From contig JBCDFF010000001.1 in NCBI GenBank assembly GCA_039178415.1, positions 1 to 54,258 of the forward strand: a stretch of 54,258 nucleotides of DNA. Direction: 5' to 3'. Made by a program: the position numbers and the translations under genes. Origin of the DNA: Bacteroidota bacterium. GTDB lineage: Bacteria; Bacteroidota; Rhodothermia; Rhodothermales; Rubricoccaceae. The notes beneath the pieces were generated by a model. The model did no database searches and was not told where the DNA came from. It saw only the letters and a program-made list of their open reading frames with translations. Positions 39,013-54,258 of this stretch are shown one piece after another; the stretch's first letter is position 1, and each line of letters starts with the position of its first letter.

Positions 39013-41397
39013 ATGCAGACTCCTGAGCCAGGCCGCGAGCGCGGCGCTTCCTCTGGGGGGTACTCGTACACTCCCTCGCCGACCAAGAACAAGCAGTTGG
39101 AGCAGATCCTGGATATGCTCTACCGGCGTCGGATGATTATCATCGCGGCGCTCGTCCTCGTCACGACCGGGGCCTTGGTCTACAGCTTTATGACGGAGCC
39201 GGAGTACAAGACCGGCTCCCTAATTATGCTAGAGCTGAACCGCGCCCCGAGCGGAGGAAGCGGTGCCGAGACCGAGACGCCGTTCATCCGCAGCGACCGC
39301 ACGATCCTGACGGAACTCTTCATCCTCCAGAACGACCAGGACATCCACCGCCGGGTCTACGAGCGGCTGAAGGAAATGAACGAGTCGGACCCGACCGTCA
39401 GCTACCCGCCCGAAGGGCAGGTGGTCTTCACCCCAGCCAGTCGATCGCTGGACAACGCGCTCCAGGTGACGTCGGTCAGCACGAGCCCGAGGGAGGCGGC
39501 TCGGCTGGCCAACATCTACGCAGAGGAATACGTCCGGCAGACCCAGGACGTGAGCCGGAACTACCTCGACCAGACGTACGGCTTCCTGAAGCAGCAGGAG
39601 GAGCAGCGCCTGGAAGAACTGCGCGTCGCAGAAGAAGAGGCGCAGCGATTCACGGAAGCGAACCAAGCGGCAGGCCTCACGCAGTCCGGCGAGGCTGTGG
39701 TGGCACAGATCGCCAGCCTGGAAGCGCAGCGCGAAGCCGCCGAGCTAGACCGCCAGATGAAGCTCGCGCAGATGGCAACGACCGAGGACGCGCTCAACGA
39801 GATCAGCCCCCAGTTGGCTGACCGCATGTCCTCTGAGACAGACCGCGAGCTGGCCGCGCTGCAGCAGCAGATCGCAAGCCTGGAGGGGCAGCGGCAGACC
39901 ATTCTCGGCTACGAGACCAGCCAGGGAACGGGGACGGAAGAAGCACAGGAACGCCGCGCTGCCGACCTCGAAGGCATCGACCGGCGTCTGCAGGCGGCGC
40001 GGGCCGAGGTGCGCGAGCTTTCGGAGACCTACGTGGAAGAAGTCCTCGCAGCCGGCGGCATCGACCAGGGGCAGGGTGCTGTGAGCTATGCGGCGGAGCT
40101 TCGCCGCCAGATGACGACAGACAACATCACGCTCGACGGTCTCAATGCCCGCATCAACCTGATGAACACGCGCATCCGGGAGATGGAGGGCGACCTGAGC
40201 CAGATTCCCGGGCAGTCGACGGAGTTTGCCCGGCTGCAGCGCCAGCGCCAGCAGGCAGAGCAGATGTACCAGTTCGTCGTGGAGCGCCTCCAGGAGACGG
40301 AGATTGCGCAGCAGTCCGAGCCAGGCTACGCCCGCATCCTGCGCGAGGCACCCGTGCCCAGAGTGCCCGACGGCCCGAGCCGGTGGAACACGATAGCGAT
40401 GGGCCTGCTGCTGGGCCTTGCGCTCGGTACCGGCCTGGCCTTCGCCCGCGACAAGCTCGACAACCGCATCTACAAGCCGGACCAGCTCCGCGACCGCGAC
40501 CAGAACGTCATCGGGGTCATCCCGAACATGGAGCCGCACATCAAGCAGGTCTACGACGGCGCGCTCTTCACGGAGTTCAACGGGAACGACGTGTCGACGA
40601 GCCTGACGACAGCGCTCGACCCGCTCTCGGCAGCCTCGGAGGCGTACCGGCACCTCCGCACCGCTGTCCAGTTCAGCCGCCCCGGCGTGATGGTGCAGAC
40701 GCTCCTGGTGACGAGCGCGGCCCCCTCGGAGGGCAAGTCCACGACAGCGGCCAACCTCGCGCTGACGATGGCGCAGGCCAAGCGCCGGACGCTGCTCATC
40801 GATGCCGACATCCGGCGGCCCAAGCAGCACACCCTCCTCGGGCGCCCGCTGGAGCCGGGTCTCGTGCAGGTGCTCCTCGACGGTGAGCAGTCCCTGCAAG
40901 CGTTCCAGACCTCGCTCGACGAGAACCTCTACGTCATGCCGGCCGGCGGCCTGCTGGACAACGGCGTCGAGGACGAAGCGTTCACCGGGGGCATCGACCC
41001 CACGCTCGTGGAGAGCCCCTCGGAACTGCTCGGGTCGAAGCGCATGCGCGACGTGCTCGAGATGCTGCGCGGCCAGTTCGACATCATCATCATCGACACG
41101 CCGCCGGTCTTGGCCGCCACCGAGCCGGTGCTACTCTCGACCCAGGCCGATGCGACGATCATCGTGGCCGCCGCCGGCAAGACGAAGGAGGGCGACCTCG
41201 ACCATAGCCTCGAGCGCCTCTCGGACGTCGGCGCGCATGTCATCGGGACGATGCTCAACCGGTTCGACCTGTCGCTGGCCTACGGCTACAAGTACAGCTA
41301 CGGGGTTTACGGACCGTACTCCAAGTACAGCTACGGTCCAGGAGAGCAGACAATCGAGCCCTGGTGGAAGCCGTCGCGCTGGTCCCACAAAGCCTAG
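39013..41397 (+). CDS. Polysaccharide co-polymerase / BY-type tyrosine autokinase (Wzc/GumC-like)
   Basis: N-terminal Wzz-like TM and a long coiled-coil periplasmic region. C-terminal kinase with Walker A SAAPSEGKSTTAANLA and Walker B IIIDTPPVLA. Terminal Tyr cluster YGYKYSYGVYGPYSKYSYGPG. Confidence 0.9.
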   Translation: MQTPEPGRERGASSGGYSYTPSPTKNKQLEQILDMLYRRRMIIIAALVLVTTGALVYSFMTEPEYKTGSLIMLELNRAPSGGSGAETETPFIRSDRTILTELFILQNDQDIHRRVYERLKEMNESDPTVSYPPEGQVVFTPASRSLDNALQVTSVSTSPREAARLANIYAEEYVRQTQDVSRNYLDQTYGFLKQQEEQRLEELRVAEEEAQRFTEANQAAGLTQSGEAVVAQIASLEAQREAAELDRQMKLAQMATTEDALNEISPQLADRMSSETDRELAALQQQIASLEGQRQTILGYETSQGTGTEEAQERRAADLEGIDRRLQAARAEVRELSETYVEEVLAAGGIDQGQGAVSYAAELRRQMTTDNITLDGLNARINLMNTRIREMEGDLSQIPGQSTEFARLQRQRQQAEQMYQFVVERLQETEIAQQSEPGYARILREAPVPRVPDGPSRWNTIAMGLLLGLALGTGLAFARDKLDNRIYKPDQLRDRDQNVIGVIPNMEPHIKQVYDGALFTEFNGNDVSTSLTTALDPLSAASEAYRHLRTAVQFSRPGVMVQTLLVTSAAPSEGKSTTAANLALTMAQAKRRTLLIDADIRRPKQHTLLGRPLEPGLVQVLLDGEQSLQAFQTSLDENLYVMPAGGLLDNGVEDEAFTGGIDPTLVESPSELLGSKRMRDVLEMLRGQFDIIIIDTPPVLAATEPVLLSTQADATIIVAAAGKTKEGDLDHSLERLSDVGAHVIGTMLNRFDLSLAYGYKYSYGVYGPYSKYSYGPGEQTIEPWWKPSRWSHKA

Positions 41398-41528
41398 GGC
41401 ATTATATTGCCAGCCCTCTGAATCGCTAGTCCGATTCCCGCTGTGCGCCGTGCGTGAGGCCTCGGAGGCCGCGCGCGGCGCACAGAGCGTACCGGCCCCC
41501 TCAGCTCTGCCTTCTACTCGCTAAGCGC

Positions 41529-42032
41529 ATGAGACGCCTCGCTCTTCCGTTCGCCACCGCCGCTCTGATCGCACTCGCCTCTCTTCCGGTACAGGCACAG
41601 CAGACTCCTGTGGCCGTGGGCGGGGTGCGCTACACGGTCTTCCATCTGCCGGGAGAGGCTACCAAGGAAGTCGTGCTGATGGGAGATCAGCAGAGCGGGA
41701 TCTATGTCATCGGAGAGACGATCACGCTGGACAAGTTCTTGGCCCTCACGGGTCTCTCCTTTTTCGAGCGTGAAACGGAAAGAGTAGAGATCAGGAAGAC
41801 GGTACGCGTGTTCCGCGAGCAAGGAGGCGAGCGCGTCGCCGTCTACGAAGCGCGGACGGAGGAGATGCTGGTCCAGTCCGAGGCCTATCCGACCCTCCAG
41901 GACAGAGATATCATTGCGATCGAGACGCAGTCGCTCAGGGGATTTGACTACCGGCAGGTGCTCCAGACAGTCTCCCAGCTAGCCACCTTGACGCTGCTCG
42001 GACTTCGCCTCTACGACGCGTTCAACAACTGA
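41529..42032 (+). CDS. Small secreted protein with SLBB-like beta-grasp pattern (Wza-related fragment?)
   Basis: Signal peptide MRRLALPFATAALIALASLPVQAQ. VVLMGDQQSGIYVIGETITLDKFLALTG and TLQDRDIIAI resemble SLBB motifs. No Poly_export domain is evident. Confidence 0.35.
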   Translation: MRRLALPFATAALIALASLPVQAQQTPVAVGGVRYTVFHLPGEATKEVVLMGDQQSGIYVIGETITLDKFLALTGLSFFERETERVEIRKTVRVFREQGGERVAVYEARTEEMLVQSEAYPTLQDRDIIAIETQSLRGFDYRQVLQTVSQLATLTLLGLRLYDAFNN

Positions 42033-42086
42033 CCGGCAGGCTGTCCAGCCGAGAGCTGCGGTGGAGGTCAGAACAGTGTCTAAGCC

Positions 42087-42098
42087 ATGAAATTTCAT
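42087..42098. promoter_or_regulatory. Perfect AT-rich 12-bp palindrome ATGAAATTTCAT in the intergenic region upstream of the WecA-like gene
   Basis: Read directly. Stands out in a GC-rich intergenic region. No known operator assigned. Confidence 0.2.
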
Positions 42099-42413
42099 CG
42101 TACGATAATGGCCCGTCCCGAGCGTCGGTGTCGTATATAGCACCAGGTGCGAGCATTACCCGCACGTCTCGCCGGTCTCCTGTATCTCCAAACAGTGCGC
42201 CAGTACCGCCGAGGCACGGCGGCGCTGAGCGCACCCGCCGGGCACTGAAGAACAGAGCAAGAATATGGGCCTCAGTAATTACAGGTCCTCGCGTCCATCC
42301 ACAAAGGGCACGATTCCGGTACTACTCCACACCGATCTCGCGCAGCCCAACACGGAGCCGGCCTCGCACCTGACGGACAGCCGCTCTAGGCAGAAACTCA
42401 CCCACGCGGTCCT

Positions 42414-43679
42414 ATGGAGTATTCGGTACTAATCATCCTGATCACGGGCTTCTTCGTCGCCTTCGGTACGACAGGACTGCTGACACCGATCGTGCGCCGC
42501 CTCGCCATCGAGCGGGACTGGGTTGACCACCCGGATGGACACCGTAAGCTCCACACGACCATTGTTCCGGCCGTCGGCGGCATCGCTATCGCCATCGGTT
42601 TTGCCGTAGGGCTGGCGTACCTGCATGCCGTCCGGGACCTGCTGAACTTCGATGTCCAGTTCCCGTCGAGCGCGCTGTGGATAGGAGCCCTCGTCATCGT
42701 AGCGTCGGGCTTCTACGACGACACACGCGGGCTGGGCTTCAAGGGTAAGTTCGCCGTGCAGGTGCTGGTGGCCTATGCCCTGCTCCATGCAGGCTACCGG
42801 ATCGACGTGACGGGGCTGCCGTTCGTGGGAGAGGACCCATACACCCACGCGCTGATCTCGATGCCGCTGACGCTGCTCTGGGTCGTGGGGGTCATCAACG
42901 CGGTCAACCTGCTCGACGGGCTCGACGGGCTCGCGGCCGGCGTTTCGCTCATCGCGTTTGCCTCGCTGGGCCTCATCTTCGGGATGGGCGGCGAACTGGG
43001 GCTGGTCTTGATCGCGCTCATCATCACCGGGGCGCTCGCCGGGTTCTTGCTCTTCAACTTCAACCCGGCCTCCATCTTCATGGGAGACTCCGGGAGCCTC
43101 TTCCTGGGCTACCTGCTGGCGACGTACACCCTCTCCGGCCCGGGGCATGCCGATCCGTGGCTGGCCCTGCTCATCCCGGCTGTGGTGCTCGGCCTTCCGC
43201 TGATCGACACGGCGCTCTCGATCGCGCGCCGCTTCGCGGGACGCCAGGCGATCTTTGCGCCGGACCGCGACCACATCCACCACCGCCTCACGCGGACGTT
43301 CACGCATCGCCAGGCCGTTCTGGTGCTCTACGCGGTTGCGCTCTCGTTCGGCGTGGCGGCCGTGGCGATGAGCATGATGGCAGCCGTCTACAGCGTCGGC
43401 ATAATCGCTGTCATGCTGGTGCTGACCGGTGTAGGTCTGAACAGGCTCAAGTACCTACGCCGCAGCTACGTCGAGCCAGACGTGCATTCCATCGGTGGAT
43501 TCTTGGAGCGCGAGGAGGAGCCCGCTTCTGCACCGTTCGAGGCGGCGGACGCGCGCGACGAGGACGTGCTGGCGGAACCGGTGGCGGCTGGCACGGGCAA
43601 CGGCAGGGTGCACGACGGGCACGGTACCGAGCGAGCCGGCTCGAGGTCGGATTTCAACATGTCGGGTGCTACATCCTGA
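42414..43679 (+). CDS. wecA: Undecaprenyl-phosphate HexNAc-1-phosphate transferase (WecA/TagO, MraY-like GT4 family)
   Basis: VDHPDGHRKLH, FYDDTRGL, NAVNLLDGLDGLAAG and NFNPASIFMGDSGSLFLGY are the conserved WecA/MraY-family motifs. Confidence 0.85.
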   Translation: MEYSVLIILITGFFVAFGTTGLLTPIVRRLAIERDWVDHPDGHRKLHTTIVPAVGGIAIAIGFAVGLAYLHAVRDLLNFDVQFPSSALWIGALVIVASGFYDDTRGLGFKGKFAVQVLVAYALLHAGYRIDVTGLPFVGEDPYTHALISMPLTLLWVVGVINAVNLLDGLDGLAAGVSLIAFASLGLIFGMGGELGLVLIALIITGALAGFLLFNFNPASIFMGDSGSLFLGYLLATYTLSGPGHADPWLALLIPAVVLGLPLIDTALSIARRFAGRQAIFAPDRDHIHHRLTRTFTHRQAVLVLYAVALSFGVAAVAMSMMAAVYSVGIIAVMLVLTGVGLNRLKYLRRSYVEPDVHSIGGFLEREEEPASAPFEAADARDEDVLAEPVAAGTGNGRVHDGHGTERAGSRSDFNMSGATS

Positions 43680-43836: not shown

Positions 43837-44127
43837 ATGATCACAGAGCAATCGACCATTGCCGTAACTCAAGGCCTGACGGCTGCCGACCTCGGCGGAG
43901 AAGCCGTTGTGCTGGACCCTAACTCAGGCCGTTACTACGGCCTCAACGAGTTGGGCGCGCGGATATTCGACCTCGCGAGGAAGCCGCGCTCGGTGGAGTG
44001 GATCATGGAAGCGCTGCTCCAGGAGTACGACGTGGAAGAGCGCAAACTAAAGGAAGATCTGTTGGCCTTCTTGCACGAGATGGAGCAGCGTCAACTCATC
44101 GAGGTCACCGATGGACCTGCTGCGTAA
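43837..44127 (+). CDS. PqqD-family RiPP recognition element (lasso peptide B1)
   Basis: About 96 aa. AADLGGEAVVLDPNSGRYYGLNELGARIFDL...LLQEYDV....L..DLLAFLHEMEQRQLIEV is the PqqD/RRE pattern. Overlaps B2 by 17 nt. Alternative GTG start at 43825. Confidence 0.8.
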   Translation: MITEQSTIAVTQGLTAADLGGEAVVLDPNSGRYYGLNELGARIFDLARKPRSVEWIMEALLQEYDVEERKLKEDLLAFLHEMEQRQLIEVTDGPAA

Positions 44128-44557
44128 GTTCGCCGGCCGCACCTGGGCCGACAAGCGGCTCCTGCTGCGCTCGCTCGCTCTCGTGGTGGGGGTGCGGGCT
44201 GGCCTCTGGGTGTTGCCGTACCGTACGGTTCAGCGTCTGGTTGAAGCAAAGCCGGGCCCCGTGCCCCCCGTAAGCACGCGGGACGGGGCTCCCTACCAGC
44301 GGCGCGTCGTAGCCGCCGTAGAATCTGTGGGGCGGCGGCTGCTCGGCGACAAGCCATGCCTAGTCCAAGCGCTCGTGGCGCAGCGGTTGCTGCGGCAGGG
44401 CGGGTACGAGACCTCGCTGCACCTCGGAGTCGCTAAAGACGGGCGGAAGCTCCTCGCGCACGCGTGGCTCGAACGCGACGGCTACGTGGTGATTGGCGGC
44501 GGACGATCGCAGTTTCAGTACACGCCGCTCAGCCCGGTCGGGCCGGACGCCGCGTGA
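44111..44557 (+). CDS. Lasso peptide leader protease B2 (transglutaminase-like Cys protease)
   Basis: KPCLVQALVAQRLLRQGGYETSLHLGV......LLAHAWLERDGYVVIG shows the Cys...His-containing McjB C-terminal-like motif. Its stop overlaps the cyclase GTG (GTGA). Confidence 0.8.
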   Translation: MDLLRKFAGRTWADKRLLLRSLALVVGVRAGLWVLPYRTVQRLVEAKPGPVPPVSTRDGAPYQRRVVAAVESVGRRLLGDKPCLVQALVAQRLLRQGGYETSLHLGVAKDGRKLLAHAWLERDGYVVIGGGRSQFQYTPLSPVGPDAA

Positions 44558-46677
44558 GTGCTGTTGCCGGGCTATACCATCTGAACGGTCAGGGCGCGGA
44601 CCAGGACGCGCTGCGCCGCATGGTTGATGCGATGCCGCACTGCGGGCCGGACGGTGCCGAGGTGTGGAGCCGGGGACCGGTAGGCCTCGGGCACCGGATG
44701 CTCCACACGACGCCTGAGTCGCTGCACGAAGTCCTACCGCTGGCGAACGCCGCCGGCACGCTCGCAGTCACTGCCGACGCCCGGATCGACAACCGGGCCG
44801 AACTGCTGGAGCAACTGCATCTCGGCGACAGCGAAGAATCAGTCACGGACAGCGCGCTCATCCTCGCGGCCTACGAGACCTGGGGCGAGCAGTGCCTCGA
44901 TCACCTCGTCGGCGACTTCGCCTTCGCCATTTGGGACGAGGCGGCGCAGCACCTCTTCTGCGCGCGCGACCACTTTGGTGTCCGGCCGTTCTACTATCAT
45001 CACCGGGCGGGCCGGCATTTCGCGTTCGGTACTGAGATCAAGGCGCTGCTTGCCGTCCCCGGCGTGCCGCAGCGGCTCAACGAGGTGCGCCTCGCGGACT
45101 TTCTCGCCACGATGCGGGAGGACCCGGAGAACACGATCTACCAGGAGGTCTTCCGGCTGCCTGCCGCACACGCGCTCGTTGTCTCGCCCGATGCGCTGCG
45201 GGTCTGGCGCTACTACACCCTCGCCCCAGCGACCGATGTTCCGCCGGACGCCTCCGACGCGGAGTACGAAGCGCGCTTCCGGGAGCTGTTCACCCAGGCC
45301 GTTCGCGCTCGGCTCCGCAGCGCATTTCCCGTCGGCTCCGAGTTGAGCGGCGGCATGGACTCCTCGTCGATCACGGCAGTCGCAGGGCAGATCATGGCGG
45401 ACGAGGGGAAGCCGCTCCACACGGTCTCGCTGGTCTACGACGACATCGAGGCGTGCGACGAGAGCCCCTTCATCAACGCCGTACTGGAGCAGGAGGGCGA
45501 CTTCGTTCCACACTTCGTCAAGGGCGACCGGCTCGGCCCGCTCTCCAACCTGGACGACGTGTACACGTATCTCGACGACGGCCTCGCCAGCGGCAACCAG
45601 CACCTGGTCTGGGCGGCGAAAGCCGCCGCGGGCGATGCCGGGATCCGCGTGCTGCTCGACGGCCTCGACGGCGACAACGTGGTGGGGCATGGGTTGCTCT
45701 ACCTCAAGGAGCTCGCCGAGACAGGCGACTGGGAGGCGTTCGCGCGCGAGAGCAAAGCGGCGGCGCGGCAGTTCCAACGCACCGAGCAGCGCCACAACTT
45801 CGAGGACAGCTTCGCTAGCCTCGACACCGCCTTCAACCGCTTCGGCCTGGCGCGCCTCCAGACCCTGGCCGACGAAAGCCGTTGGGGGGCGTTCTTCAAG
45901 GAGCTGGCGGCTGCCGAGCGGCTCTTCGGGGTGAAGCGCTCGGACGTGCTGCGGCTCCTGTGGCGGCGGCTCGTGCAGCCGGCGGCGCTTCTGCGCGCGC
46001 GCGACGCCCGGCGGAACGACAGCAACAATGCGGCGCGCCCCAAGCCGCTGCTTCCGCTCCTCGACCCGGACTTTGCCGAGCGTATCGGGATGGCCGAGCG
46101 TCTGCAGCGCTTCGAGGACCAGAAGCCAAACCTGACGACGGTACGGGACGTGCAGCGCCAGCTCCTGAACGGCTCGCGGATCCAGACGGCGCTCGAACTC
46201 ACGACGCATGCGAGCGCGGCCCACGGGATCGAGATCCGGCACCCCTTCTTCGACAAGCGGCTCGTCGAGTTCTGCCTCGCGCTGCCGCCGGGGCAGAGCC
46301 TGAAAGACGGGTGGACCCGGTCCATCCTGCGCCGCGCGCTCGGCGGCATCCTGCCGGAGAAGGTGCAGTGGCGCGTCGGCAAGGCGTGGCTCGCGCCGAA
46401 CTTCGAGCGCGGGCTCTACGAGCAGGACCGGGCACTGCTTGACGAGCACGTCGCGGACCTCGGCCCGCTGCGCCCATACGTGGACAAGAGCGTAGTCGAT
46501 GGCCTCTACCGCAGGGGAAAAGACGTTCCCAATATCGAGCAGGCACAGCTCGCTCGCATCACCACGCTCTCGTTCTGGCTGAAGAAGCGCTTCCCGACCT
46601 TAACGGAAGGTGAGACGCTGGCCTCGTCCGGCGGGTGCGACGGCGACCGCGGAGCCACGGTGCCTCAGGGGCCGTAG
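44554..46677 (+). CDS. Lasso peptide cyclase (asparagine-synthetase-like, McjC type)
   Basis: AsnB-like throughout (SELSGGMDSSSI PP-loop), but the N-terminus is (V)SAVAGLYHL, with Ser where AsnB has the glutaminase Cys2, as in lasso cyclases. Flanked by B2 and the precursor. Confidence 0.85.
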   Translation: MSAVAGLYHLNGQGADQDALRRMVDAMPHCGPDGAEVWSRGPVGLGHRMLHTTPESLHEVLPLANAAGTLAVTADARIDNRAELLEQLHLGDSEESVTDSALILAAYETWGEQCLDHLVGDFAFAIWDEAAQHLFCARDHFGVRPFYYHHRAGRHFAFGTEIKALLAVPGVPQRLNEVRLADFLATMREDPENTIYQEVFRLPAAHALVVSPDALRVWRYYTLAPATDVPPDASDAEYEARFRELFTQAVRARLRSAFPVGSELSGGMDSSSITAVAGQIMADEGKPLHTVSLVYDDIEACDESPFINAVLEQEGDFVPHFVKGDRLGPLSNLDDVYTYLDDGLASGNQHLVWAAKAAAGDAGIRVLLDGLDGDNVVGHGLLYLKELAETGDWEAFARESKAAARQFQRTEQRHNFEDSFASLDTAFNRFGLARLQTLADESRWGAFFKELAAAERLFGVKRSDVLRLLWRRLVQPAALLRARDARRNDSNNAARPKPLLPLLDPDFAERIGMAERLQRFEDQKPNLTTVRDVQRQLLNGSRIQTALELTTHASAAHGIEIRHPFFDKRLVEFCLALPPGQSLKDGWTRSILRRALGGILPEKVQWRVGKAWLAPNFERGLYEQDRALLDEHVADLGPLRPYVDKSVVDGLYRRGKDVPNIEQAQLARITTLSFWLKKRFPTLTEGETLASSGGCDGDRGATVPQGP

Positions 46678-46791: not shown

Positions 46792-46980
46792 ATGAAGACC
46801 TACAGCGCACCCATGCTCACCGAGTACGGCGACGTGGCCGCGATCACGGCGACGCTGGGCGACCCCTTCACGGGCGACCAGTCGTTCGACGTGGACGGCA
46901 ACGTGATCGAGGAAGGACTCAACTCGATCAACCAGTGCCCGACGCTCGAGTTCGAGACGTGCCACTTCGAGAACCCGTAG
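46792..46980 (+). CDS. Lasso peptide precursor (62 aa)
   Basis: MKTYSAPMLTEYGDVAAITATLGDPFTGDQSFDVDGNVIEEGLNSINQCPTLEFETCHFENP. The leader fits YxxPxLx3Gx5Tx exactly (Y4,P7,L9,G13,T19). A Gly-x5-Asp (GDPFTGD) macrolactam candidate follows. Located immediately after the cyclase gene. Confidence 0.7.
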   Translation: MKTYSAPMLTEYGDVAAITATLGDPFTGDQSFDVDGNVIEEGLNSINQCPTLEFETCHFENP

Positions 46981-47130: not shown

Positions 47131-48045
47131 ATGCACCGTTACAAGGCTTTCGGACTTTCGATCCACTCAGACATCGCGCTCTCCGGTTTCGCCCCGGGCA
47201 GCAGCCTGCCGGACATTACGATCCAGAAGGGCGACCTGCGCGTGCGGAAGACGGCACCGGGCGCGCGGCACGGGAACGTCGTCTCGGGGCACATCAAAGA
47301 GGACCACTGGGACCTGGACCTCCTCTTCCACATCCAGGGCGGCGAGGTGGTCACCTACGACACGCTGAAGCCGCTCTCCGAGGACCTGCTCCGCAGCTTC
47401 GTGCAGGGCGCGCTCCTGGCCGCCGTCCTGCGGCAGCGGCACCTCCTCGTGCTTCACGGCTCGGCGGTCTCCGACGGCGAGCAGGCCATCGCCTTCCTCG
47501 GCAACTCCGGCTGGGGCAAGTCCACGCTCGCCGAATACTTCTGCCAGCGTGGGTACGAACTCATCACCGACGACGTGATGGTGGTCGTCCCCGGCACTGA
47601 GGCCGAGCCGGCGCGCATCCCCCCGGGCGTCAAGCAGGTCCGCCTCCGCCCCCATTCCGCTGAGCGGCTTGTCGAGGACTACGAGAGCCTCCCGCTGGTC
47701 ACTGAGGTCTCGGCCAAGCGCCTGCGCGTTCTAAAGGGCGAGGAGGTGCGGTCGATACCCCTGTCGAAGCTGTACATTCTGCAGCGGCAGACGGCCGACG
47801 CGAACCGCATCACGCCGCTGGACCCGCAGCAGGTCCCGCTTCACTGCGTCGCCCACACGCACGCCACCAACTGGATCACCGACCCTGAGTACGTCTCGGA
47901 GCACTTCAGGCAGTGCGCCCAACTCGCCAAGCACACGCCGGTCGCCCTCCTGGAGCGTATCCTGTCGCTCGACGCGCTCCCGGATATCTACGACCTCGTC
48001 ACGGCCGACGTCGACGAGCTCTCCGCGAGTGAGCAGCCCACCTAA
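47131..48045 (+). CDS. HPr-kinase-like serine kinase associated with lasso clusters
   Basis: LVLHGSAVSDGEQAIAFLGNSGWGKSTLAEYFCQRGYELITDD matches the HprK C-terminal P-loop domain pattern seen in lasso-associated kinases (PadeK/ThcoK type). Confidence 0.7.
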   Translation: MHRYKAFGLSIHSDIALSGFAPGSSLPDITIQKGDLRVRKTAPGARHGNVVSGHIKEDHWDLDLLFHIQGGEVVTYDTLKPLSEDLLRSFVQGALLAAVLRQRHLLVLHGSAVSDGEQAIAFLGNSGWGKSTLAEYFCQRGYELITDDVMVVVPGTEAEPARIPPGVKQVRLRPHSAERLVEDYESLPLVTEVSAKRLRVLKGEEVRSIPLSKLYILQRQTADANRITPLDPQQVPLHCVAHTHATNWITDPEYVSEHFRQCAQLAKHTPVALLERILSLDALPDIYDLVTADVDELSASEQPT

Positions 48046-48056
48046 GCAGTCCCCCG

Positions 48057-49991
48057 ATGACAGCAGCGCAAACGTGGCGGCACAGAGCCGATGACCTGAA
48101 GCTGCGGGCCTCCTACGTGCGGATGGCCCTCCGGCTGATCTGGTCGGCGGCGAGCACCTGGACGGTGCTATGGTTCGCGCTGCTCGCGGTGCAGGGCACC
48201 CTCCCGGCGGCGGTCGTCTACCTCACGAAGTGGCTCGTCGACAGCCTCGCCGCAGCGGTGGCCGGAGAGGTCGGCCTCGGCGCGGTGATCGCGCCGGCCG
48301 CACTGATGGGCGGCATCATGATCCTCCAGCGCGTCCTCGGCGGGATCAACGAGTGGGTCTCGACGGCCCAGGCCGAACTCGTCGGGGACCGGGTGAAGGA
48401 GCTCGTCCACGAGAAGGCGACCGAGGTGGACTTCGGGTTCTACGAGTCGGCGGACTACCACGACAAGCTGGAGCAGGTCAACTCGCAGGCCAACAGCCGC
48501 GTGCTCCAGCTCCTCAAGAACATCGGCGGGCTGCTGCAGGCGGCTGTGACGCTGCTCTCGATCTCGGCGATCCTGCTCAGCTACAGCCTGTGGCTCCCGC
48601 TCGTGCTCATCGTGAGCACGCTGCCCGCGTTCTTCGTCGTCGTGCGGCACAACAAGAAGTACCACGCGTGGTGGAAGGGGTCGACCGCCCGCCGCCGCCT
48701 CGCGCAGTACTTCGACCTCATGGTGACCTTCGACGCCTCGGCGGCCGAGGTGCGGATCAACAACACGGGCACCTACTTCCGCACGCGCTACATGGCGCTG
48801 CGCAAGGCGCTGCGCGAGGAGCGGCTCGACCTCCTCAAGCGGCAGGTGCTGGCGCGGCTCTTCGCTACGTTCCTCGGCCTCCTCGCCACCGCCGGCGCGA
48901 TGCTCTGGGTGGTGCTCCGGGCGACGCGCGGCGCGGCCACGCTCGGCGACCTCGCTCTCTTTTACCAGGCGTTCAATCAGGGCCAGGCACTCGTCGGCGG
49001 GCTGCTCCAGAACATGGGGCAGATCTACACCAACACGCTCTTCCTAGAGCACCTCTTCGATTTCCTCGACCAGGAGAACGCCCTCGAAGAATCCGAGGCA
49101 CCGACGCCGTTCCCGGCCCGGATCGACGAAGGGGTCCGGTTCGAAGACGTTTCCTTCAGCTATCCCGGTTTCGAGCGGAAGGCCCTCGAAGGGTTCAGCC
49201 TTACGATCCCGGCCGGCAAGATCGTCGCCATCGTCGGCGAGAACGGGGCGGGCAAGAGCACGTTCATCAAGCTCCTCTGCCGGTTCTACGACCCGACGGC
49301 CGGGCGCATCACAGTCGACGGGACCGACCTCCGCGACTTCGCGCAGGCGGACCTCCGCCGCCACGTCTCGGTGATGTTCCAGGTGCCGATGAAGTACCAG
49401 ATGACGGCCGAGCAGAACATCCGCCTCGGCGACCTCGCCCGCGAGACGGGCCGCGACGCGGTCCAGGCGGCGGCGGTCGGCGGCGGGGCGCACGAGGTGA
49501 TCCAGAAGCTGCCGCAGACCTACGACCAGGTGCTCGGGCGCTGGTTCGAGACGGGGAGCGAACTGAGCGGGGGCGAGTGGCAGCGCGTGGCGCTCTCGCG
49601 GGCGTTTTTCCGCGAGGCCCCCATCGTCGTCCTCGACGAGCCGACGAGTTCGATGGACTCGTGGGCCGAGAACGAGTGGCTGGCACGGTTCCGACGGATG
49701 GTCGAGGGCCGAACGGCGCTGCTGATCACGCACCGCTTCACAACCGCGATGCAGGCCGACGTCATCCACGTCATGGACGCTGGCCAGGTCGTCGAGACGG
49801 GCACGCACGACCAACTGCTGGCCCTCGGCGGGCGCTACGCGGCGTCGTGGCGCGCCCAGATGCGGCAGGAGGAAGGCACGGTCGAGTCGATCGCGGGCGA
49901 GTCCGTCCTCGGCGACGGCCTCGCGGGGGAGGAAGCCGCCGGCGTGCATCCGACCCTCGACGCGGACGCGGAGCCGCCCTCGGTGCGATGA
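48057..49991 (+). CDS. Fused TMD-NBD ABC exporter (McjD-like lasso exporter/immunity)
   Basis: Six N-terminal hydrophobic segments. Walker A GENGAGKST, signature LSGGEWQR, Walker B IVVLDEPTS. Confidence 0.9.
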   Translation: MTAAQTWRHRADDLKLRASYVRMALRLIWSAASTWTVLWFALLAVQGTLPAAVVYLTKWLVDSLAAAVAGEVGLGAVIAPAALMGGIMILQRVLGGINEWVSTAQAELVGDRVKELVHEKATEVDFGFYESADYHDKLEQVNSQANSRVLQLLKNIGGLLQAAVTLLSISAILLSYSLWLPLVLIVSTLPAFFVVVRHNKKYHAWWKGSTARRRLAQYFDLMVTFDASAAEVRINNTGTYFRTRYMALRKALREERLDLLKRQVLARLFATFLGLLATAGAMLWVVLRATRGAATLGDLALFYQAFNQGQALVGGLLQNMGQIYTNTLFLEHLFDFLDQENALEESEAPTPFPARIDEGVRFEDVSFSYPGFERKALEGFSLTIPAGKIVAIVGENGAGKSTFIKLLCRFYDPTAGRITVDGTDLRDFAQADLRRHVSVMFQVPMKYQMTAEQNIRLGDLARETGRDAVQAAAVGGGAHEVIQKLPQTYDQVLGRWFETGSELSGGEWQRVALSRAFFREAPIVVLDEPTSSMDSWAENEWLARFRRMVEGRTALLITHRFTTAMQADVIHVMDAGQVVETGTHDQLLALGGRYAASWRAQMRQEEGTVESIAGESVLGDGLAGEEAAGVHPTLDADAEPPSVR

Positions 49992-50590
49992 GACTCCCGC
50001 AGTGGCTCGCCTACGGACTCGCCCCCGCCGTCCTCGTGCTCGGCGTGGCCCTCCAGCGCTACAACGTGGCGGTCCACGACCAGACGAAGTGGACCGGCGG
50101 CGGCTTCGCTATGTTCTCGACGGTCGACGTGCCGGGCGCGCGCGCGCTCCGCGCCTACGTGGTCACGGACCAGGGCGAGGCGCTCGCGGTCGAGCCCGAC
50201 TACGGCATCGAGCGGCGGCTCGTCTACACCCAGCCTAAGCAGGAGCGTCTCCACGCCGTAGCCCAGCACCTCGCCGCCCAGACCTGGCGCGTCTACGATG
50301 CCTCGACGTACCTGGAGGTCTGGCCGTCGCTCCCGGACTTTCTCCAGCGCTACTTCCAGCGCTCCGACGCCTGGCAGGCTGCCTGGACAGACTCGGCTTC
50401 CACCGAGGGTCTCTACCCCGGCCACCTCGCCTTCGCTGCACGCCGCGCGCCGTACAACGGGCGCCCGGCAGAGGTCGCGATCACCGGTGCCCGCGTCGAG
50501 GTCTGGAAGCCCGTCTTCGACCCCGACGCCGAGGAGCTCAGCTGGCAGCGGATCGCCGAGGCTACGGCGCAGACGGCCTCGGCCGAGTAA
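49988..50590 (+). CDS. Small N-terminally anchored protein (possible SdpA/DUF5819-like), copy 2
   Basis: The ATG at 49988-49990 overlaps the ABC exporter TGA (49989-49991). MRLPQWLAYGLAPAVLVLGVAL is a TM helix. The KWTGGGFAMFSTVD motif is shared with 4914-5585. The N-terminal 606 codons of ORF 48170-50590 are an out-of-frame shadow of the ABC gene. Confidence 0.5.
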   Translation: MRLPQWLAYGLAPAVLVLGVALQRYNVAVHDQTKWTGGGFAMFSTVDVPGARALRAYVVTDQGEALAVEPDYGIERRLVYTQPKQERLHAVAQHLAAQTWRVYDASTYLEVWPSLPDFLQRYFQRSDAWQAAWTDSASTEGLYPGHLAFAARRAPYNGRPAEVAITGARVEVWKPVFDPDAEELSWQRIAEATAQTASAE

Positions 50591-50596
50591 GTACGC

Positions 50597-51508
50597 ATGG
50601 ACGCGTCCGCCCAAACGCCCACCGTGTCACCCCCGCCCGAAGGCGGCCTGCGCGCCCTCGTCCGGCGTCCGGTCGACGCCCTCCTCCGGGCTGATCTCTT
50701 CGAGCTAGGCGCGGCGATGACGCTCCTGATGATCGTGCTGTCGCTGCACGAGCCGTCGTGGCCGGTCAAGCTCGGGCTCGTGACGCTCACCGCGACGGCG
50801 CTCGTGCTGCGCCCGCTGATGCGGAACCCGCTGCTGTGGCTCGGCCTCGTCGGCGTCCTCGTGCTGGCCTACACCCAGACGTGGTACCAGCAGAACAACC
50901 ACGACTACCTCAAGCTCTACTGGTGCCTCGGCGTCGGGGTCTCGCTCCTCGCCGCCGAGCCGCTGCGGGCGGTGCGTGTCAACGCCCGCATTCTCATCGG
51001 GCTCTGCTTCCTGTTTGCGACCGTCTGGAAAGCCGTCTCGGTGGACTACATGAGCGGCGCGTTCTTCAACTACTTCCTCCTCCAGGACACGCGCTTCGAA
51101 CTCTTCGCCGACCACCTCGTCGGCCTCGACCCGAGCGTGCTGATGCAGGAACGTGCTGGCCGGGTGTTCTACACCGCGTTCGGCGATCCGGCGGGTGTGC
51201 TCGCCGTGCCGTTCGCGGCCGAAGCCCGGTGGCTCGGGGTTGCGATGACGTGGTGGACACTCCTCATCGAGGGGGCCGTAGCTCTGGCCTTTCTCCTCCC
51301 GGCGCGGTTCACCCTGGCGAAGTGGCGCGACGCCGTGCTCCTGGTGTTCATCTTCTCGACCTACTTCATCGCTCCCATCCTCTACTTCGCATGGCTCATC
51401 ACAGCGATGGGCCTGATCCAGTGCGAGCGGGAGACGTTCCGCTACGCTCCGGTCCTGTATGTGGCAGCCTTCGTGCTCGTCCTGATGCGGTTTTACCTTC
51501 CAGTATGA
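50597..51508 (+). CDS. Polytopic membrane protein, HTTM-like (vitamin K gamma-carboxylase/SdpB-like), copy 2
   Basis: QQNNHDYLKLYWCL, LFATVWKAVSVDYMSGAFF, MTWWTLLIEGAVALAFLL. Colinear with 3971-4903 over the whole length. Confidence 0.6.
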   Translation: MDASAQTPTVSPPPEGGLRALVRRPVDALLRADLFELGAAMTLLMIVLSLHEPSWPVKLGLVTLTATALVLRPLMRNPLLWLGLVGVLVLAYTQTWYQQNNHDYLKLYWCLGVGVSLLAAEPLRAVRVNARILIGLCFLFATVWKAVSVDYMSGAFFNYFLLQDTRFELFADHLVGLDPSVLMQERAGRVFYTAFGDPAGVLAVPFAAEARWLGVAMTWWTLLIEGAVALAFLLPARFTLAKWRDAVLLVFIFSTYFIAPILYFAWLITAMGLIQCERETFRYAPVLYVAAFVLVLMRFYLPV

Positions 51509-52671
51509 CGAACAACGCGGGGCTAGGTGCGGCTCCCCGACCGGCGCGGCGCGGAAGGCGGGTGGTGCGCCTCGGCCTGCGTGTGGCCGAGGTCGCACTC
51601 GTCGGCCTGCTCATCATGGCCTTCACGGCGGCCTACGTGCCCCCGGACACGCTCTGGTGGGGGCAGTTTGTCGCCATCTTCAGCGGCCTGCTGCTCGCCA
51701 TCGTCGCGGTCGTCGCAGCCATCGCTGCGGTCAAGCGGCAGTGGCGGCGGGCCGCGCTGCACGCCTCGCTCCTCACCGGTGCCCTGCTGATGCCCGCTCT
51801 CAGCGCCCGCCCTGACCCGGTCCCCGCCCCGCCCGACGCGCCGGGGCTGACCGTGATGACGTTCAACGCGAGCGTGCGGCACGCCGGCAGCGAGCAGGAC
51901 GCCCTCGCCGCCCTCCTGGCCCGCGACAAGCCCCACCTCATCGCGCTCCAGGAATTCTCCATCCGCCTGATCCGCGAAACGGGCGTCACGATGGGCGCGC
52001 CGCTGCTCGGGCCGCTGCTCAAGGACCGGGCGTACGAAGCGTCCTGGCCCGACACCGAGGGCAAGGACTACCTCTTCAGCCGTCCGATCTTCTCGCGCAT
52101 CCAGGCGCAGGAGCAGGGCGAGGTCCTGGCCGGCGACCCCCCGACAGGTCCTCGGTCCGGCGGACTGTGGTCCTCTGGCGGCATCACGCGCCGGCTCTAC
52201 CGGTGGGACGGCCGGACAATCGCCCTCTACAACGTGCACCTCCACTCGTTCAGCAGCCACCGCCCGTGGCGCGAGGCGGACGAGCGGTTTTCGCTCCGGG
52301 CCTGGGCGGACGCGCTCCAGGACTACCGCCGGGACTTCGAGGTGCGCGCCGAGCAGGCCCGCGTCCTGCGACGCCTCCTGGATGAGGAAGCGCATCCGTT
52401 CATCGTCTGCGGCGACTTCAACAGCACGCCTCGAAGCTGGGTCTACGCCTACCTCCAGCAGGGCCTCCGCGACGCGTTCCGGGAGGCCGGATCGGGATGG
52501 GGCGCTACGTTCCCCGCGCGCCTTCCGCTCATCCGCATAGACTATCTCCTCGTCAGCGATGCGTGGTCCGTGCGCCGGGCCTACGTAGACACCGGCCTGG
52601 CCTCCGACCACCGACCGGTCATCGCAGAGCTCGTGCTGCGGACGGAGCCGGAACCGACCGCGAACCGGTAG
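51505..52671 (+). CDS. Membrane-anchored endonuclease/exonuclease/phosphatase (EEP) family protein
   Basis: The ATG overlaps the HTTM gene stop (ATGA). There are 2-3 N-terminal TM helices. Then LTVMTFNA..., IALQEF, VCGDFNSTP and LASDHRPVIAEL, the EEP catalytic motifs. Confidence 0.75.
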   Translation: MTNNAGLGAAPRPARRGRRVVRLGLRVAEVALVGLLIMAFTAAYVPPDTLWWGQFVAIFSGLLLAIVAVVAAIAAVKRQWRRAALHASLLTGALLMPALSARPDPVPAPPDAPGLTVMTFNASVRHAGSEQDALAALLARDKPHLIALQEFSIRLIRETGVTMGAPLLGPLLKDRAYEASWPDTEGKDYLFSRPIFSRIQAQEQGEVLAGDPPTGPRSGGLWSSGGITRRLYRWDGRTIALYNVHLHSFSSHRPWREADERFSLRAWADALQDYRRDFEVRAEQARVLRRLLDEEAHPFIVCGDFNSTPRSWVYAYLQQGLRDAFREAGSGWGATFPARLPLIRIDYLLVSDAWSVRRAYVDTGLASDHRPVIAELVLRTEPEPTANR

Positions 52672-52861: not shown

Positions 52862-53989
52862 ATGGCGACCATACACCCCGACGAGGCCGGCGCACGACCA
52901 GAATACAAGGCCCTAGTGCTCTGCTGCCGGACCGAGCTGACGCCCGCACACGCCGACCACCTCGCGCGGTACCTGAGCGACGAGGATTTGCAGTGGAACT
53001 ACCTGGTCACGCTGGCCGGGTACCACGGGGTGCAGCCGCTGCTCTACTGCCACCTCCGGAGCATGGAAGAGCACTTGCTCTCTGAGAAGCACATGACGTG
53101 GCTGCGCGGCGTCGTCGGGGCACGCTCGGCTCACAGCCTGGTGCTGATGCAGGAGCTAGGCCGCCTAACCGAACTCTGTGCTCAGCAGCACCTCCCCATG
53201 CTCGCAGTGAAAGGGGCGGTCCTGGCCCAGAGTGTGTACGGCGGCGTTGCCCTCCGGCCCTTCGCAGACATCGACCTCGTGATCCGGCGCGAGGACTTTA
53301 CGCACCTGGAGACGCTGCTCCGGCAGCAGGGCTACGGATCCAGGAAGATGAGCCCGTTCCAGAAGACGAGCTACCTCTACATCAACGGCCAGTACACCTT
53401 CTGGCGGCGCATCCCGAGCCTGGGCGAAGCCGCCGCGTTCATCGACGTGCACACCGCCATCATGCCGCCGGGCTACGCCTACTCGGAAAACTTCGACGCA
53501 CTGACGGCGCGCTCCGTGACCGTGCCGGTTGCCGGACGCCAGGTGCCGACGCTCGGGCGCGAGGACCTGCTCCAGGTGATCTGCTACCACGGCTTCAAAA
53601 ACCGGTGGGACCGGTTCAAGTACATCTGCGACCTCGCCGAGCTGATCCGCGCGTCCCCGGACATGGACTGGGAAGCAGCGTACCACCGGATGCACGCGAT
53701 GCGCAGCCGGCGCGTACTCCGGCTGGGCCTGTTCCTCGCCTCCGCGCTGCTGGACGCTCCGCTGCCCAGGCAGGTCTGGGAGGACGTGCGGGAGGACCGC
53801 CGCGTCAGGGACATCGGGCACGCCATCATCGACCGGCTGCCCAGACAGGCCCACATCAAGGTGGAGCCCTACTGGGAGCGCGTGCGGCTCAACGTCTTGG
53901 CGCAGGACACAGTCGGGGGCGGGCTCCGGTACGGGGCGTATTCCGCCGCCCGCAAAGTGACCGACCTGTACCTGCCTGCAGGCGAGTAG
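52862..53989 (+). CDS. Uncharacterised nucleotidyltransferase family protein (NTP_transf_5-like)
   Basis: LAVKGAVLAQSVYGGVALRPFADIDLVIRREDFTHLETLLRQQGY is the hallmark block of this family, which is known to accompany kinase-containing lasso clusters. Confidence 0.6.
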   Translation: MATIHPDEAGARPEYKALVLCCRTELTPAHADHLARYLSDEDLQWNYLVTLAGYHGVQPLLYCHLRSMEEHLLSEKHMTWLRGVVGARSAHSLVLMQELGRLTELCAQQHLPMLAVKGAVLAQSVYGGVALRPFADIDLVIRREDFTHLETLLRQQGYGSRKMSPFQKTSYLYINGQYTFWRRIPSLGEAAAFIDVHTAIMPPGYAYSENFDALTARSVTVPVAGRQVPTLGREDLLQVICYHGFKNRWDRFKYICDLAELIRASPDMDWEAAYHRMHAMRSRRVLRLGLFLASALLDAPLPRQVWEDVREDRRVRDIGHAIIDRLPRQAHIKVEPYWERVRLNVLAQDTVGGGLRYGAYSAARKVTDLYLPAGE

Positions 53990-54011: not shown

Positions 54012-54258
54012 CTACTGCGGCGCGGGGCCGGACTGGCTCTGCTCCCACCGTATGGCGAACTGCAGGAGTTCGGTCACCGTCTCAAACCCCAGCTTCTCCT
54101 TCGCCCGGCGGCGGTATGTCTCGACCGTCTTCCGACTCAGGTTCAGGCGCTCGGCGATCTCCTCGGTCGGCTTGCCCTGGCCCAGCATCTGGAAGACCGC
54201 CATCTCGCGGTCGGTCAGGTCCTCCAGCCCCGGCGTCGACTCCCCGAGCCTGGCCGCG
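54012..54258 (-). CDS. LuxR/FixJ-type HTH regulator, C-terminal part (partial, continues beyond the right edge)
   Basis: LTDREMAVFQMLGQGKPTEEIAERLNLSRKTVETYRRRAKEKLG is the GerE/LuxR HTH. The reading frame stays open to position 54258. Confidence 0.8.
   Translation of the reverse strand, partial: AARLGESTPGLEDLTDREMAVFQMLGQGKPTEEIAERLNLSRKTVETYRRRAKEKLGFETVTELLQFAIRWEQSQSGPAPQ

Follow-up and report, generated by a model that had tools for sequence, protein, structure and literature searches.

The lasso peptide operon described here raises the question of what two adjacent genes, which match no curated protein family, do directly behind its exporter gene. The operon lies in a 54,258-nucleotide stretch of DNA from a Bacteroidota bacterium of the Rubricoccaceae (contig JBCDFF010000001.1, positions 1 to 54,258), which is called the window throughout this text. 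The two genes, referred to as ORF-A and ORF-B, encode a small membrane-anchored protein and a polytopic membrane protein. The original prediction, made from the letters of the sequence alone, had taken them for an SdpA/SdpB-like pair, with a larger member resembling HTTM-domain proteins as well as the gamma-glutamyl carboxylase that depends on vitamin K (VKGC), recruited into the operon as a peptide-maturation module. Our answer is that the pair may be a split, highly divergent enzyme of the HTTM/VKGC type, which would face the periplasm, use menaquinol and O2, and act on the exported lasso peptide; we put the probability of this reading at about 0.47, slightly below even odds. The evidence that carries it is the pairing of the two genes, their fixed place in the operon, the predicted fold of ORF-B, and a set of nearly invariant residues.

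A two-gene module behind a peptide exporter

ORF-A occupies positions 49988-50590 on the forward strand, encodes 200 amino acids (aa), and ends in a TAA codon; its ATG (49988-49990) overlaps the TGA of the exporter gene (49989-49991) in the sequence ATGA. The ATG of ORF-B (50597-51508, forward strand, 303 aa) stands 6 bases past the ORF-A stop, and its TGA (51506-51508) overlaps, again as ATGA, the ATG of the next gene at 51505. These boundaries and the overlaps at both ends are the ones given in the original prediction. The public gene call for ORF-B, P0001, has 294 aa and is 9 residues shorter, which is consistent with an in-frame GTG start at 50624. Either start is possible, and the choice between 50597 and 50624 is ambiguous because the N-terminus varies among relatives, the first ~25 residues not being conserved; no other result hangs on it.

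A profile search of 1.84 billion cluster representatives retrieved 1482 relatives of ORF-B at E<=1e-3. In addition, a scan of GTDB species genomes with two peptide patterns yielded 69 loci, which were pooled with loci collected before. A same-strand partner bearing W-x-[GA][GA]-GF-[GA]-MF lies directly upstream in 67 of the 80 ORF-B copies of this pooled set (the 69 GTDB loci and others), and a motif-bearing partner is present at 42 of 60 metagenome loci; in both sets, most loci without the partner are at contig ends. ORF-A and ORF-B are an obligate two-gene module across many phyla, and the earlier description of a small and a polytopic protein forming a conserved unit agrees with these counts. 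A 944-codon ORF ending in ORF-B (L082 397-3228, L083 7369-10200), which looked like a fusion, was rejected as an artefact of how ORFs are listed: upstream of ORF-B, high-GC DNA is read out of frame and gives an Arg/Gly/Pro-rich translation.

The pair was found in Rhodothermales, Balneolales, Salinibacter/Salinivenus, Flavobacteriales, Leptolyngbyaceae, and other cyanobacteria, and also in Planctomycetota, Acidobacteriota, Verrucomicrobiota, Lentisphaera, a deltaproteobacterium, Deinococcus, and Entotheonella. On the Deinococcus plasmid, both genes are labeled 'hypothetical protein' in RefSeq. No alpha-, beta-, or gammaproteobacterial record title occurs among the 69 GTDB loci of the two-pattern scan. 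The named taxa that carry the pair are, as far as is known, users of menaquinone or phylloquinone, both naphthoquinones, and the distribution of the pair is an indirect hint at a dependence on such quinones, a hint only, given that the scan relied on two peptide patterns.

Close relatives of the pair (55-80% identity; the nearest named genomes are Rhodothermales metagenome-assembled genomes, MAGs) all lie in the same type of cluster. The shared gene order is GT4, the lasso proteins B1, B2, and C, one to four precursors, an HPr-kinase-like (HPrK-like) protein, the ATP-binding cassette (ABC) exporter, ORF-A, ORF-B, an endonuclease/exonuclease/phosphatase (EEP) protein, and a nucleotidyltransferase of the NTP_transf_5 family. 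Within it, every Rhodothermales-type cluster keeps the order ABC, ORF-A, ORF-B, EEP, the genes being joined by 4-nt overlaps or set apart by short gaps. This arrangement is more than chance, because order and overlaps recur in all related clusters and in part in a much more distant one, L077; the translational coupling of the pair within a lasso operon, which had been proposed for the window, holds across them. Two Rhodothermales MAGs with a lasso-linked copy carry a second pair elsewhere (L013 9203-10831, L014 4311-6183; 44-45% identity); the one in L013 has genes for a carbamoyltransferase and a GT4-family glycosyltransferase as neighbors. These second copies form the sister group of the lasso-linked clade in a neighbor-joining (NJ) tree, a pattern suggesting that the lasso-linked pair arose by duplication and recruitment. 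One paralog of the pair occurs in every Rhodothermales lasso cluster of this type, but the module as a whole is not specific to lasso peptides.

L077, from Vicinamibacterales, has a related cluster (L077 1639-13045) in which the exporter is directly followed by a pair with no more than 31% identity. Here the order is Wzy_C, PqqD, NTP_transf_5, an insertion sequence element, a precursor-like ORF, HPrK-like, a B2-ABC fusion, ORF-A, ORF-B, and B2, and the same 4-nt ATGA-type overlaps join the ABC stop to the ORF-A start and the ORF-A stop to the ORF-B start. No gene for an Asn-synthase-type cyclase is present within the 20 kb examined. The precursor-like ORF (5832-6008, forward strand) has a lasso-type leader, KPYTPPTLVEYGPLRKLT, and a 30-residue core, GGGTPFGEQDEEAFGEQDEEVMGGGGEDEQ, that contains 8 Glu but lacks Cys. 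In the NJ tree, the deep branches of which are weak, ORF-B of L077 is not sister to the Rhodothermales lasso clade. Be it through independent recruitment or through ancient linkage, the pair stays associated with this type of exporter across a very wide divergence, and this speaks for a functional connection. The L077 cluster is interrupted by a Mutator-family transposase and flanked by Wzy_C and glycosyltransferases.

Predicted fold and conserved residues

The AlphaFold2 model of ORF-B, computed from a 30-sequence alignment, is confident (pLDDT 88.1, pTM 0.84) and presents an all-helical bundle, which we read as ~9 transmembrane (TM) helices; hydropathy marks 7 strong and 2 weaker hydrophobic segments. 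In ORF-A, hydropathy finds a single N-terminal hydrophobic segment at about residues 3-24, a signal-anchor TM helix. Model and hydropathy agree with the earlier view of one TM helix in ORF-A and several in ORF-B. When the ORF-B model was compared with the PDB by Foldseek, six VKGC entries reached TM-scores on the query of 0.39-0.46 (best E 0.2, probability 0.93), and all other matches listed, ABC transporters and G-protein-coupled receptors, stayed at or below 0.21. In BFVD, rank 1 was taken by a Harvfovirus 'HTTM domain-containing protein', A0A3G5A327 (E 0.046, probability 1.00, TM-score on query 0.41), and rank 3 by the Yasminevirus protein A0A5K0UBG6 (TM-score on query 0.45, probability 0.82), described as a 'vitamin K epoxidase-desaturase' (PMC13486548); all other matches listed there were at or below 0.23. 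Because two independent libraries pick the same family and nothing else, we assign ORF-B an HTTM/VKGC-type fold with moderate confidence.

Conservation was assessed in 292 non-redundant near-full-length relatives of ORF-B. E225 and F251 are conserved in 100% of them, H102 and W81 in 99.7%, and N101 and K145 in 98.6%, K145 being otherwise Arg, while position 151 is always Tyr or Phe. Helix counting in the model, together with the positive-inside rule, places N101-H102 in a periplasmic loop after TM3, where TM4 begins. By the same helix counting, TM5 carries K145 at its periplasmic end and is followed by a loop with Y151, while E225 belongs to TM6 and F251 to TM7. Positive-inside counts put the conserved polar residues of ORF-B and the domain of ORF-A on the periplasmic side. 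The motifs KWTGGGFAMFSTVD of ORF-A and QQNNHDYLKLYW, LFATVWKAVSVDYMSGAFF, and MTWWTLLIEGAVALAFLL of ORF-B, which had been singled out by eye, are all present as quoted, and the near-invariant N101, H102, K145, and E225 fall within those of ORF-B.

The active site of VKGC offers a template for these residues. K218 is the general base and is stacked on W223; D263 lies next to K218, keeps 25% of the activity in the D263E variant, and is replaced by Glu in viral epoxidases; the naphthoquinone is stacked between F286 and M401; the substrate Glu is bound by N159, H160, and Y395; and residues 374-418 are essential for carboxylation and absent from epoxidase-only viral proteins (PMC12647623, PMC13486548). 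On the basis of the model, N101-H102, K145, the aromatic residue 151, E225, and F251 would correspond, in this order, to VKGC N159-H160, K218, W223, D263, and F286 and, as we read the VKGC topology, would lie in equivalent helices and loops.

A profile comparison touches the same residues. The human GGCX sequence used is identical to the PDB chains, and VKGC homologues were gathered into a 31-sequence alignment; an hhalign run against human GGCX alone was discarded, as the template Neff was 1. Against the 31-sequence alignment, the ORF-B family obtained a score of 23.0, with NNH on N158-N159-H160, K145 on K217/K218, and Y151 on W223. The alignment first drawn by eye is reproduced here in its NNH and Lys parts, but a score of this size is at the level of shuffled alignments, and hhalign is therefore not used as evidence of homology.

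In ORF-A, the stretch next to the membrane carries KWTGGGFAMFSTVD and reads K34-W-T-G-G-G-F-A-M-F-S-T-V-D47; its motif, W-x-GGGF-x-MFS, forms a loop ~10 residues past the anchor helix. Among 31 diverse relatives, W35, G37, G39, F40, M42, F43, R52, and P83 are invariant and G38 is near-invariant. The remainder of the protein is presumably a periplasmic domain. By analogy, the loop formed by W35, G37, G39, F40, M42, and F43 could cap the ORF-B site as LL9 does in VKGC. When the ORF-A family was compared with the VKGC alignment, residues 7-73 were placed on VKGC 358-431, that is, on the last TM helix and the WTNGLYGYSWDMM loop, with a score of 18.0. Sequence comparison neither proves nor disproves a link of ORF-A and ORF-B to VKGC.

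Two observations concern variation in these motifs. In the pair on the Deinococcus taeanensis plasmid NZ_CP083457.1 (L141 4439-5690), GGH replaces NNH/DNH before TM4, and the partner reads W-R-GGGFGMY; the N-H motif can thus, in at least this copy, do without its Asn. ORF-A residue 36 (50093-50095) and ORF-B residue 100 (50894-50896) change together, the combinations being K/R-D in 47 pairs, T/A-N in 9 (the lasso clade), H-V in 13 (cyanobacteria), and E-D in 2, which may represent a salt bridge between the subunits that was lost. This covariation was dropped as evidence, as it amounts to only ~3 lineage events and many other columns rank at least as high.

Proposed role and competing explanations

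From anatomy, conservation, pairing, synteny, and the computed fold similarity, we infer the residue equivalences, topology, cofactor, substrate, and chemistry of the following scheme. ORF-A and ORF-B would together make up a single integral-membrane enzyme. Its catalytic core, which would bind the quinol, would be ORF-B with ~9 TM helices and with near-invariant residues at the periplasmic face or in adjacent helices, and the anchor helix of ORF-A would set the W-x-GGGFGMF loop and the periplasmic domain over the ORF-B site, like LL9 of VKGC (W390...Y395-G396...M401-M402). Such a module would be general in bacteria that use menaquinone or phylloquinone, and a duplicated copy would have been built into the Rhodothermales lasso operon behind the ABC exporter. 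There, the enzyme would act in the periplasm on the already exported, highly acidic lasso peptide, with menaquinol and O2 giving rise to a strong base that drives a C-H activating modification. Carboxylation of an acidic residue would be the obvious candidate chemistry, with D11 and D13 as conserved residues and Glu as a variable one. The predicted location of the EEP enzyme is likewise the periplasm, where it could undo or trim a phospho- or nucleotidyl modification made in the cytoplasm. We regard the comparative genomics as solid and the catalytic interpretation of the pair as plausible. A bolder version, in which the pair is a widespread, unannotated bacterial counterpart of VKGC, split into a membrane core and a separately anchored 'carboxylase-signature' subunit and carboxylating or base-activating acidic residues of exported peptides with menaquinol and O2, is in our estimate improbable.

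The precursor of the window (46792-46980, forward strand, 62 aa) has the sequence MKTYSAPMLTEYGDVAAITATL / GDPFTGDQSFDVDGNVIEEGLNSINQCPTLEFETCHFENP, and its core begins GDPFTGD. In 13 aligned Rhodothermales-type precursors, G1, P3-F4-T5-G6-D7, F10-D11-x-D13-G14, S23, and Q26-C27-P28-T29 are invariant, a second Cys follows 7-8 residues past C27, and 12 of the 13 end in Pro. A lasso ring of 7 residues, G1-D7, is predicted, and QCPT...C looks like a disulfide pair. The cores are strongly acidic, with 6-10 Asp and Glu residues and almost no basic ones. A single precursor gene is present in the window, and related clusters have 2-4 tandem copies (L005 4878-6451, L007 5346-6289, L008 5336-5876).

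Several results weigh against the reading of the pair as a quinol-dependent enzyme that modifies the lasso peptide. The Glu residues to which the original prediction had drawn attention as a clue to carboxylation (E18, E19, E31, E33, and E38) are not conserved; core Glu counts vary from 0 to 6, and the cores of some pair-bearing clusters have 0-1 Glu. Glu positions being variable, the argument from a 'Glu-rich core' fails for the Rhodothermales clade. At the sequence level, hmmscan against Pfam and NCBIfam at E<=1 found no PF05090 (HTTM) or SdpB match in ORF-B and no SdpA or DUF5819 match in ORF-A, which matches no Pfam or NCBIfam family at all. Extended to relatives at E<=10, the same libraries gave no HTTM, SdpA, SdpB, DUF5819, or PF22777 match for any of 73 diverse ORF-B and 31 diverse ORF-A proteins. 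PF22777, the lumenal domain of VKGC, was matched by neither ORF-A nor ORF-B. The proposed membership in the SdpA, SdpB, and DUF5819 families (TIGR04034 and TIGR04033 for the first two) is thereby not upheld, and the HTTM/VKGC-like character of ORF-B is supported by its predicted fold and not by PF05090. Profile searches of both families against all PDB sequences returned 0 matches at E<=10. The hhalign scores of ORF-B and ORF-A were each equalled or beaten by 22 of 150 block-shuffled VKGC alignments. The Foldseek E-values are weak (0.046-1.5), the TM-scores are <0.5, and the root-mean-square deviation (rmsd) is 9-14 Å; the model of ORF-A (11 sequences) is poor, with a pLDDT of 49.8, and its Foldseek output is noise. 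The pairing of E225 with D263 and of F251 with F286 follows from helix counting and order rather than from a residue-level superposition, and hhalign aligned the E225 region otherwise, a point that alternative and greedy alignments did not settle. Finally, most copies of the pair lie outside clusters for peptides that are ribosomally synthesized and then modified post-translationally (RiPPs), in varying contexts; a search for neighborhood enrichment outside the lasso clade found lineage-specific synteny only and no shared partner gene. A role unrelated to the peptide is possible because most copies have no RiPP neighbors.

These points favor, to different degrees, other explanations of the pair. 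That all sequence-based tests are negative or non-significant, and that the Foldseek E-values are not significant alone at such TM-scores and rmsd values, is what one would find if ORF-A and ORF-B were an unrelated two-component membrane protein and the resemblances mere chance among helical bundles. We consider this very unlikely, since both structure libraries pick the same family (6 of the 6 listed VKGC entries and 2 viral HTTM/vitamin K epoxidase proteins), with TM-scores 2-3 times those of every other membrane protein listed, and the near-invariant residues match VKGC catalytic residues in order, in the expected loops and helices. If the fold is genuine, the enzyme may nevertheless be a housekeeping envelope module, engaged in lipid or quinone chemistry or in the maturation of other periplasmic proteins, with the cluster copy serving self-protection, possibly as a resistant duplicate of the peptide's target, or membrane homeostasis during production. 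Most copies do lie outside RiPP clusters, in unrelated contexts such as carbamoyltransferase/glycosyltransferase, MFS, and STAND/TIR genes, and the second pairs in L013 and L014, sister to the lasso clade, show a duplication pattern typical of resistance genes in biosynthetic clusters. VKGC-like epoxidases of giant viruses have, moreover, been proposed to act on lipids, not on proteins (PMC13486548). This explanation is weakened by the tight translational coupling to the exporter, which is kept in two very distant lineages, and by the position of the pair right after the exporter and beside a periplasmic EEP enzyme, which fits a step after export. In addition, it is normally the ABC exporter itself that confers immunity to lasso peptides. 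On balance, we hold an envelope or immunity role to be unlikely.

The two remaining alternatives would keep the peptide as the object of the pair and change the chemistry. In one, the pair is an SdpA/SdpB-like membrane accessory for proteolytic processing or release, without quinol-dependent chemistry. The gene order is that of sdpABC, with a small protein followed by a membrane protein of ~300 aa beside a secreted peptide gene, ORF-B has an HTTM-like fold, and both SdpA and SdpB are needed if SdpC is to be processed to SDP (PMC6818787). This account is doubtful, given the lack of SdpA and SdpB matches in the 73 ORF-B and 31 ORF-A relatives. The precursor, furthermore, already has the leader peptidase B2 and a cyclase, and no obvious second cleavage site is seen in the cores; the strict conservation of K145, E225, H102, and N101 points to catalysis in the manner of VKGC and not to scaffolding. 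In the other, the pair works as a MauE/DoxX-type thiol oxidase linked to quinones and forms a disulfide in the peptide between C27 and the second Cys. MauE has been implicated in maturing the disulfide-rich small subunit of methylamine dehydrogenase, the two Cys are invariant in all 12 Rhodothermales-type cores, and the weak family matches that recur among ORF-B relatives are to MauE (12 of 73, best E 0.0023) and DoxX_3 (3 of 73), the one inspected MauE match lying on the helix that bears K145. These matches are, however, far below the gathering scores, and ORF-B C110 and C137 are replaced by V, A, T, or S in a third or more of the relatives, while in ORF-A no Cys is conserved and 18 of 64 such proteins lack Cys altogether. 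Because no Cys is conserved in either subunit, there is no thiol relay. That the L077 precursor lacks Cys as well counts further against a disulfide-forming role, and a thiol oxidase, an idea we rejected, is hardly probable. Of these readings, that of a split HTTM/VKGC-type enzyme acting on the exported peptide explains the pair best.

Surroundings of the pair and known systems

The operon around ORF-A and ORF-B is a complete lasso cluster, with B1, B2, C, and a precursor that has a YxxP leader, Thr at -2, and Gly1...Asp7. All genes named in this paragraph are on the forward strand. B1, the PqqD-like leader-recognition protein, is encoded at 43837-44127 (PqqD, 3.8e-18), and B2, the transglutaminase-like leader peptidase, at 44111-44557 (Transglut_core3, 9e-22). 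The asparagine-synthase-like cyclase C (44554-46677; Asn_synthase 1.2e-45, GATase_7) starts with a GTG that overlaps the B2 stop as GTGA. Downstream of the precursor lie an HPr-kinase-related P-loop protein (47131-48045; Hpr_kinase_C 1.1e-4 and HprK_rel_A 7.7e-8, both below cutoff) and the ABC exporter, with a transmembrane and a nucleotide-binding domain (48057-49991; ABC_tran 3e-32, ABC_membrane), the stop of which overlaps the start of ORF-A. After the pair come the EEP protein (51505-52671; Exo_endo_phos 6.5e-20), which starts within the ORF-B stop, and the NTP_transf_5 nucleotidyltransferase (52862-53989; PF14907, 4.6e-52), by synteny the last gene of the conserved cluster. Among the pair loci compared, the EEP gene is present only in those of the lasso type. 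Its product begins with three TM segments; by the positive-inside rule, the catalytic domain is predicted to lie in the periplasm, and NCBIfam gives a weak VanJ-like match. Such a predicted periplasmic EEP protein, together with an HPrK-like protein and a nucleotidyltransferase that are both cytoplasmic, suggests a cycle of 'modify inside, export, trim outside'.

Polysaccharide genes always precede the lasso cluster (window 39013-43679, and also L001 1-2906 and L007 1-2210); they encode a Wzz/GNVR-type tyrosine kinase, a protein of ~170 aa (a 192-aa ORF in the window), and a Glycos_transf_4 phosphotransferase. The peptide system thus seems to be embedded in an exopolysaccharide locus, a setting which presumably resembles the HprK-related/PqqD systems that TIGRFAMs ties to such loci. 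On the opposite strand downstream (window 54012-54203, reverse strand; L001 13280-17109), one or two response regulators of the LuxR/GerE type are present in all relatives, and L001, L007, and L008 additionally carry a PAS-HisKA_3 histidine kinase there. The end of the window falls inside the first regulator, where a GerE-like helix-turn-helix is visible.

Of the systems to which the pair can be compared, VKGC is the sole fold-consistent match of ORF-B in the PDB. Both are multi-pass proteins with a non-cytoplasmic active face, and the W-x-GGGFGMF loop of ORF-A resembles VKGC W390-TNGLYGYSWDMM. In contrast to VKGC, which is a single protein of 758 aa, two polypeptides are found here; ORF-B has 303 aa, and the subunit with the loop has an anchor helix of its own and is encoded upstream. 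The full-length VKGC homologues retrieved all carry PF22777, which ORF-A and ORF-B do not have. The acidic partner is Asp in VKGC and Glu in ORF-B, and the propeptide/Gla-type substrate of VKGC has no equivalent here, where no Glu is conserved in the cores. Neither ORF-A nor ORF-B shows significant sequence similarity to VKGC, as judged from Pfam and from hhalign at shuffle level. In size, ORF-B is closer to the vitamin K epoxidases of giant viruses (A0A3G5A327, A0A5K0UBG6), which have the dimensions of the HTTM core alone, keep the Lys, and have Glu at the position of D263, as ORF-B has E225 (PMC13486548). Unlike the pair, they lack the 374-418 signature, and no adjacent small ORF supplying it was found (PMC13486548), whereas ORF-A offers a loosely similar loop. 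They are also fused or adjacent to a desaturase and VKOR and not to a peptide exporter.

Closer in genetic arrangement are SdpA and SdpB of Bacillus subtilis. SdpB is an HTTM-family protein, and SdpA we take to be largely cytoplasmic, in contrast to the bitopic ORF-A. In sdpAB, and likewise in YitP/YitO, a small gene is followed by a membrane gene of ~300 aa in one operon with a secreted peptide gene, and this arrangement is also what is found in the window and its relatives, where the small gene lies directly upstream and both are co-operonic with precursor and exporter. SdpA and SdpB are needed for the maturation of SDP, and SdpB and YitO act in toxin maturation (PMC6818787). The substrate there is a Sec-secreted protein, whereas here it would be a lasso peptide exported by an ABC pump. 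Another HTTM-type membrane protein inside a RiPP cluster is crdG of the linaridin corynaridin, with a putative role in tailoring or maturation (PMC9927463). It belongs to a different RiPP class, is recognized as HTTM by standard annotation, unlike ORF-B, and no ORF-A-like partner has been described for it. MauE and DoxX proteins (PF07291, PF13781) differ from ORF-B in their length of ~130-170 aa and their ~4 TM helices, as against ~9 and an obligatory partner; they probably share one Pfam clan with HTTM.

Among lasso clusters, those of the paeninodin/pseudomycoidin type also combine B1, B2, and C with an HPr-kinase-like gene, a nucleotidyltransferase, and an ABC exporter, as described in a review of lasso modifications (PMC8498205). 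The known kinases of this class phosphorylate a C-terminal Ser, whereas the cores here mostly end in Pro. The same review makes no mention of a 'membrane protein', and its passages on this class that were retrieved describe no periplasmic EEP enzyme (PMC8498205). In the library searched, no paper mentions both HTTM and lasso peptide, in line with the earlier statement that no lasso pathway with an HTTM partner was known.

The pair is of interest beyond this operon. Animals have one enzyme, VKGC, for gamma-carboxylation, and bacterial HTTM proteins such as SdpB and those of the linaridin H-type are, as far as we know, genetically required for peptide maturation by a mechanism still unexplained. 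As a family of 1482 or more sequence clusters that is covered by neither Pfam nor NCBIfam models, with a VKGC-type set of Lys, acid, and Asn-His and always with a small periplasmic partner, ORF-A and ORF-B would offer a tractable bacterial system for HTTM function outside animals. Their fixed place behind a peptide exporter in two distant lineages predicts a periplasmic, menaquinone-dependent modification of the lasso peptide. If true, this would be a new class of RiPP tailoring chemistry and a rare modification after export in lasso biosynthesis. If the reading as a split carboxylase were true, it would be the first quinol-driven lasso tailoring after export and the first bacterial RiPP enzyme to form gamma-carboxyglutamate (Gla) or beta-carboxy-Asp; the Glu-rich core of L077 (8 of 30 residues) leaves Glu carboxylation possible for that lineage. 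Should the prediction fail, what remains is still an uncharacterized module of the envelope, conserved broadly enough to deserve annotation.

With SdpB/YitO (PMC6818787) and crdG (PMC9927463) as precedents, finding an HTTM partner beside RiPP genes is not categorically new. What is new here is a combination of two protein families without a curated model and an obligatory two-subunit architecture. To this may be added the VKGC-like residue set that ORF-B keeps, with a second subunit that may carry the counterpart of the carboxylase-specific loop. Also new is the placement of the pair directly behind the exporter of a lasso cluster of the kinase/nucleotidyltransferase type, a class known from the paeninodin/pseudomycoidin systems (PMC8498205).

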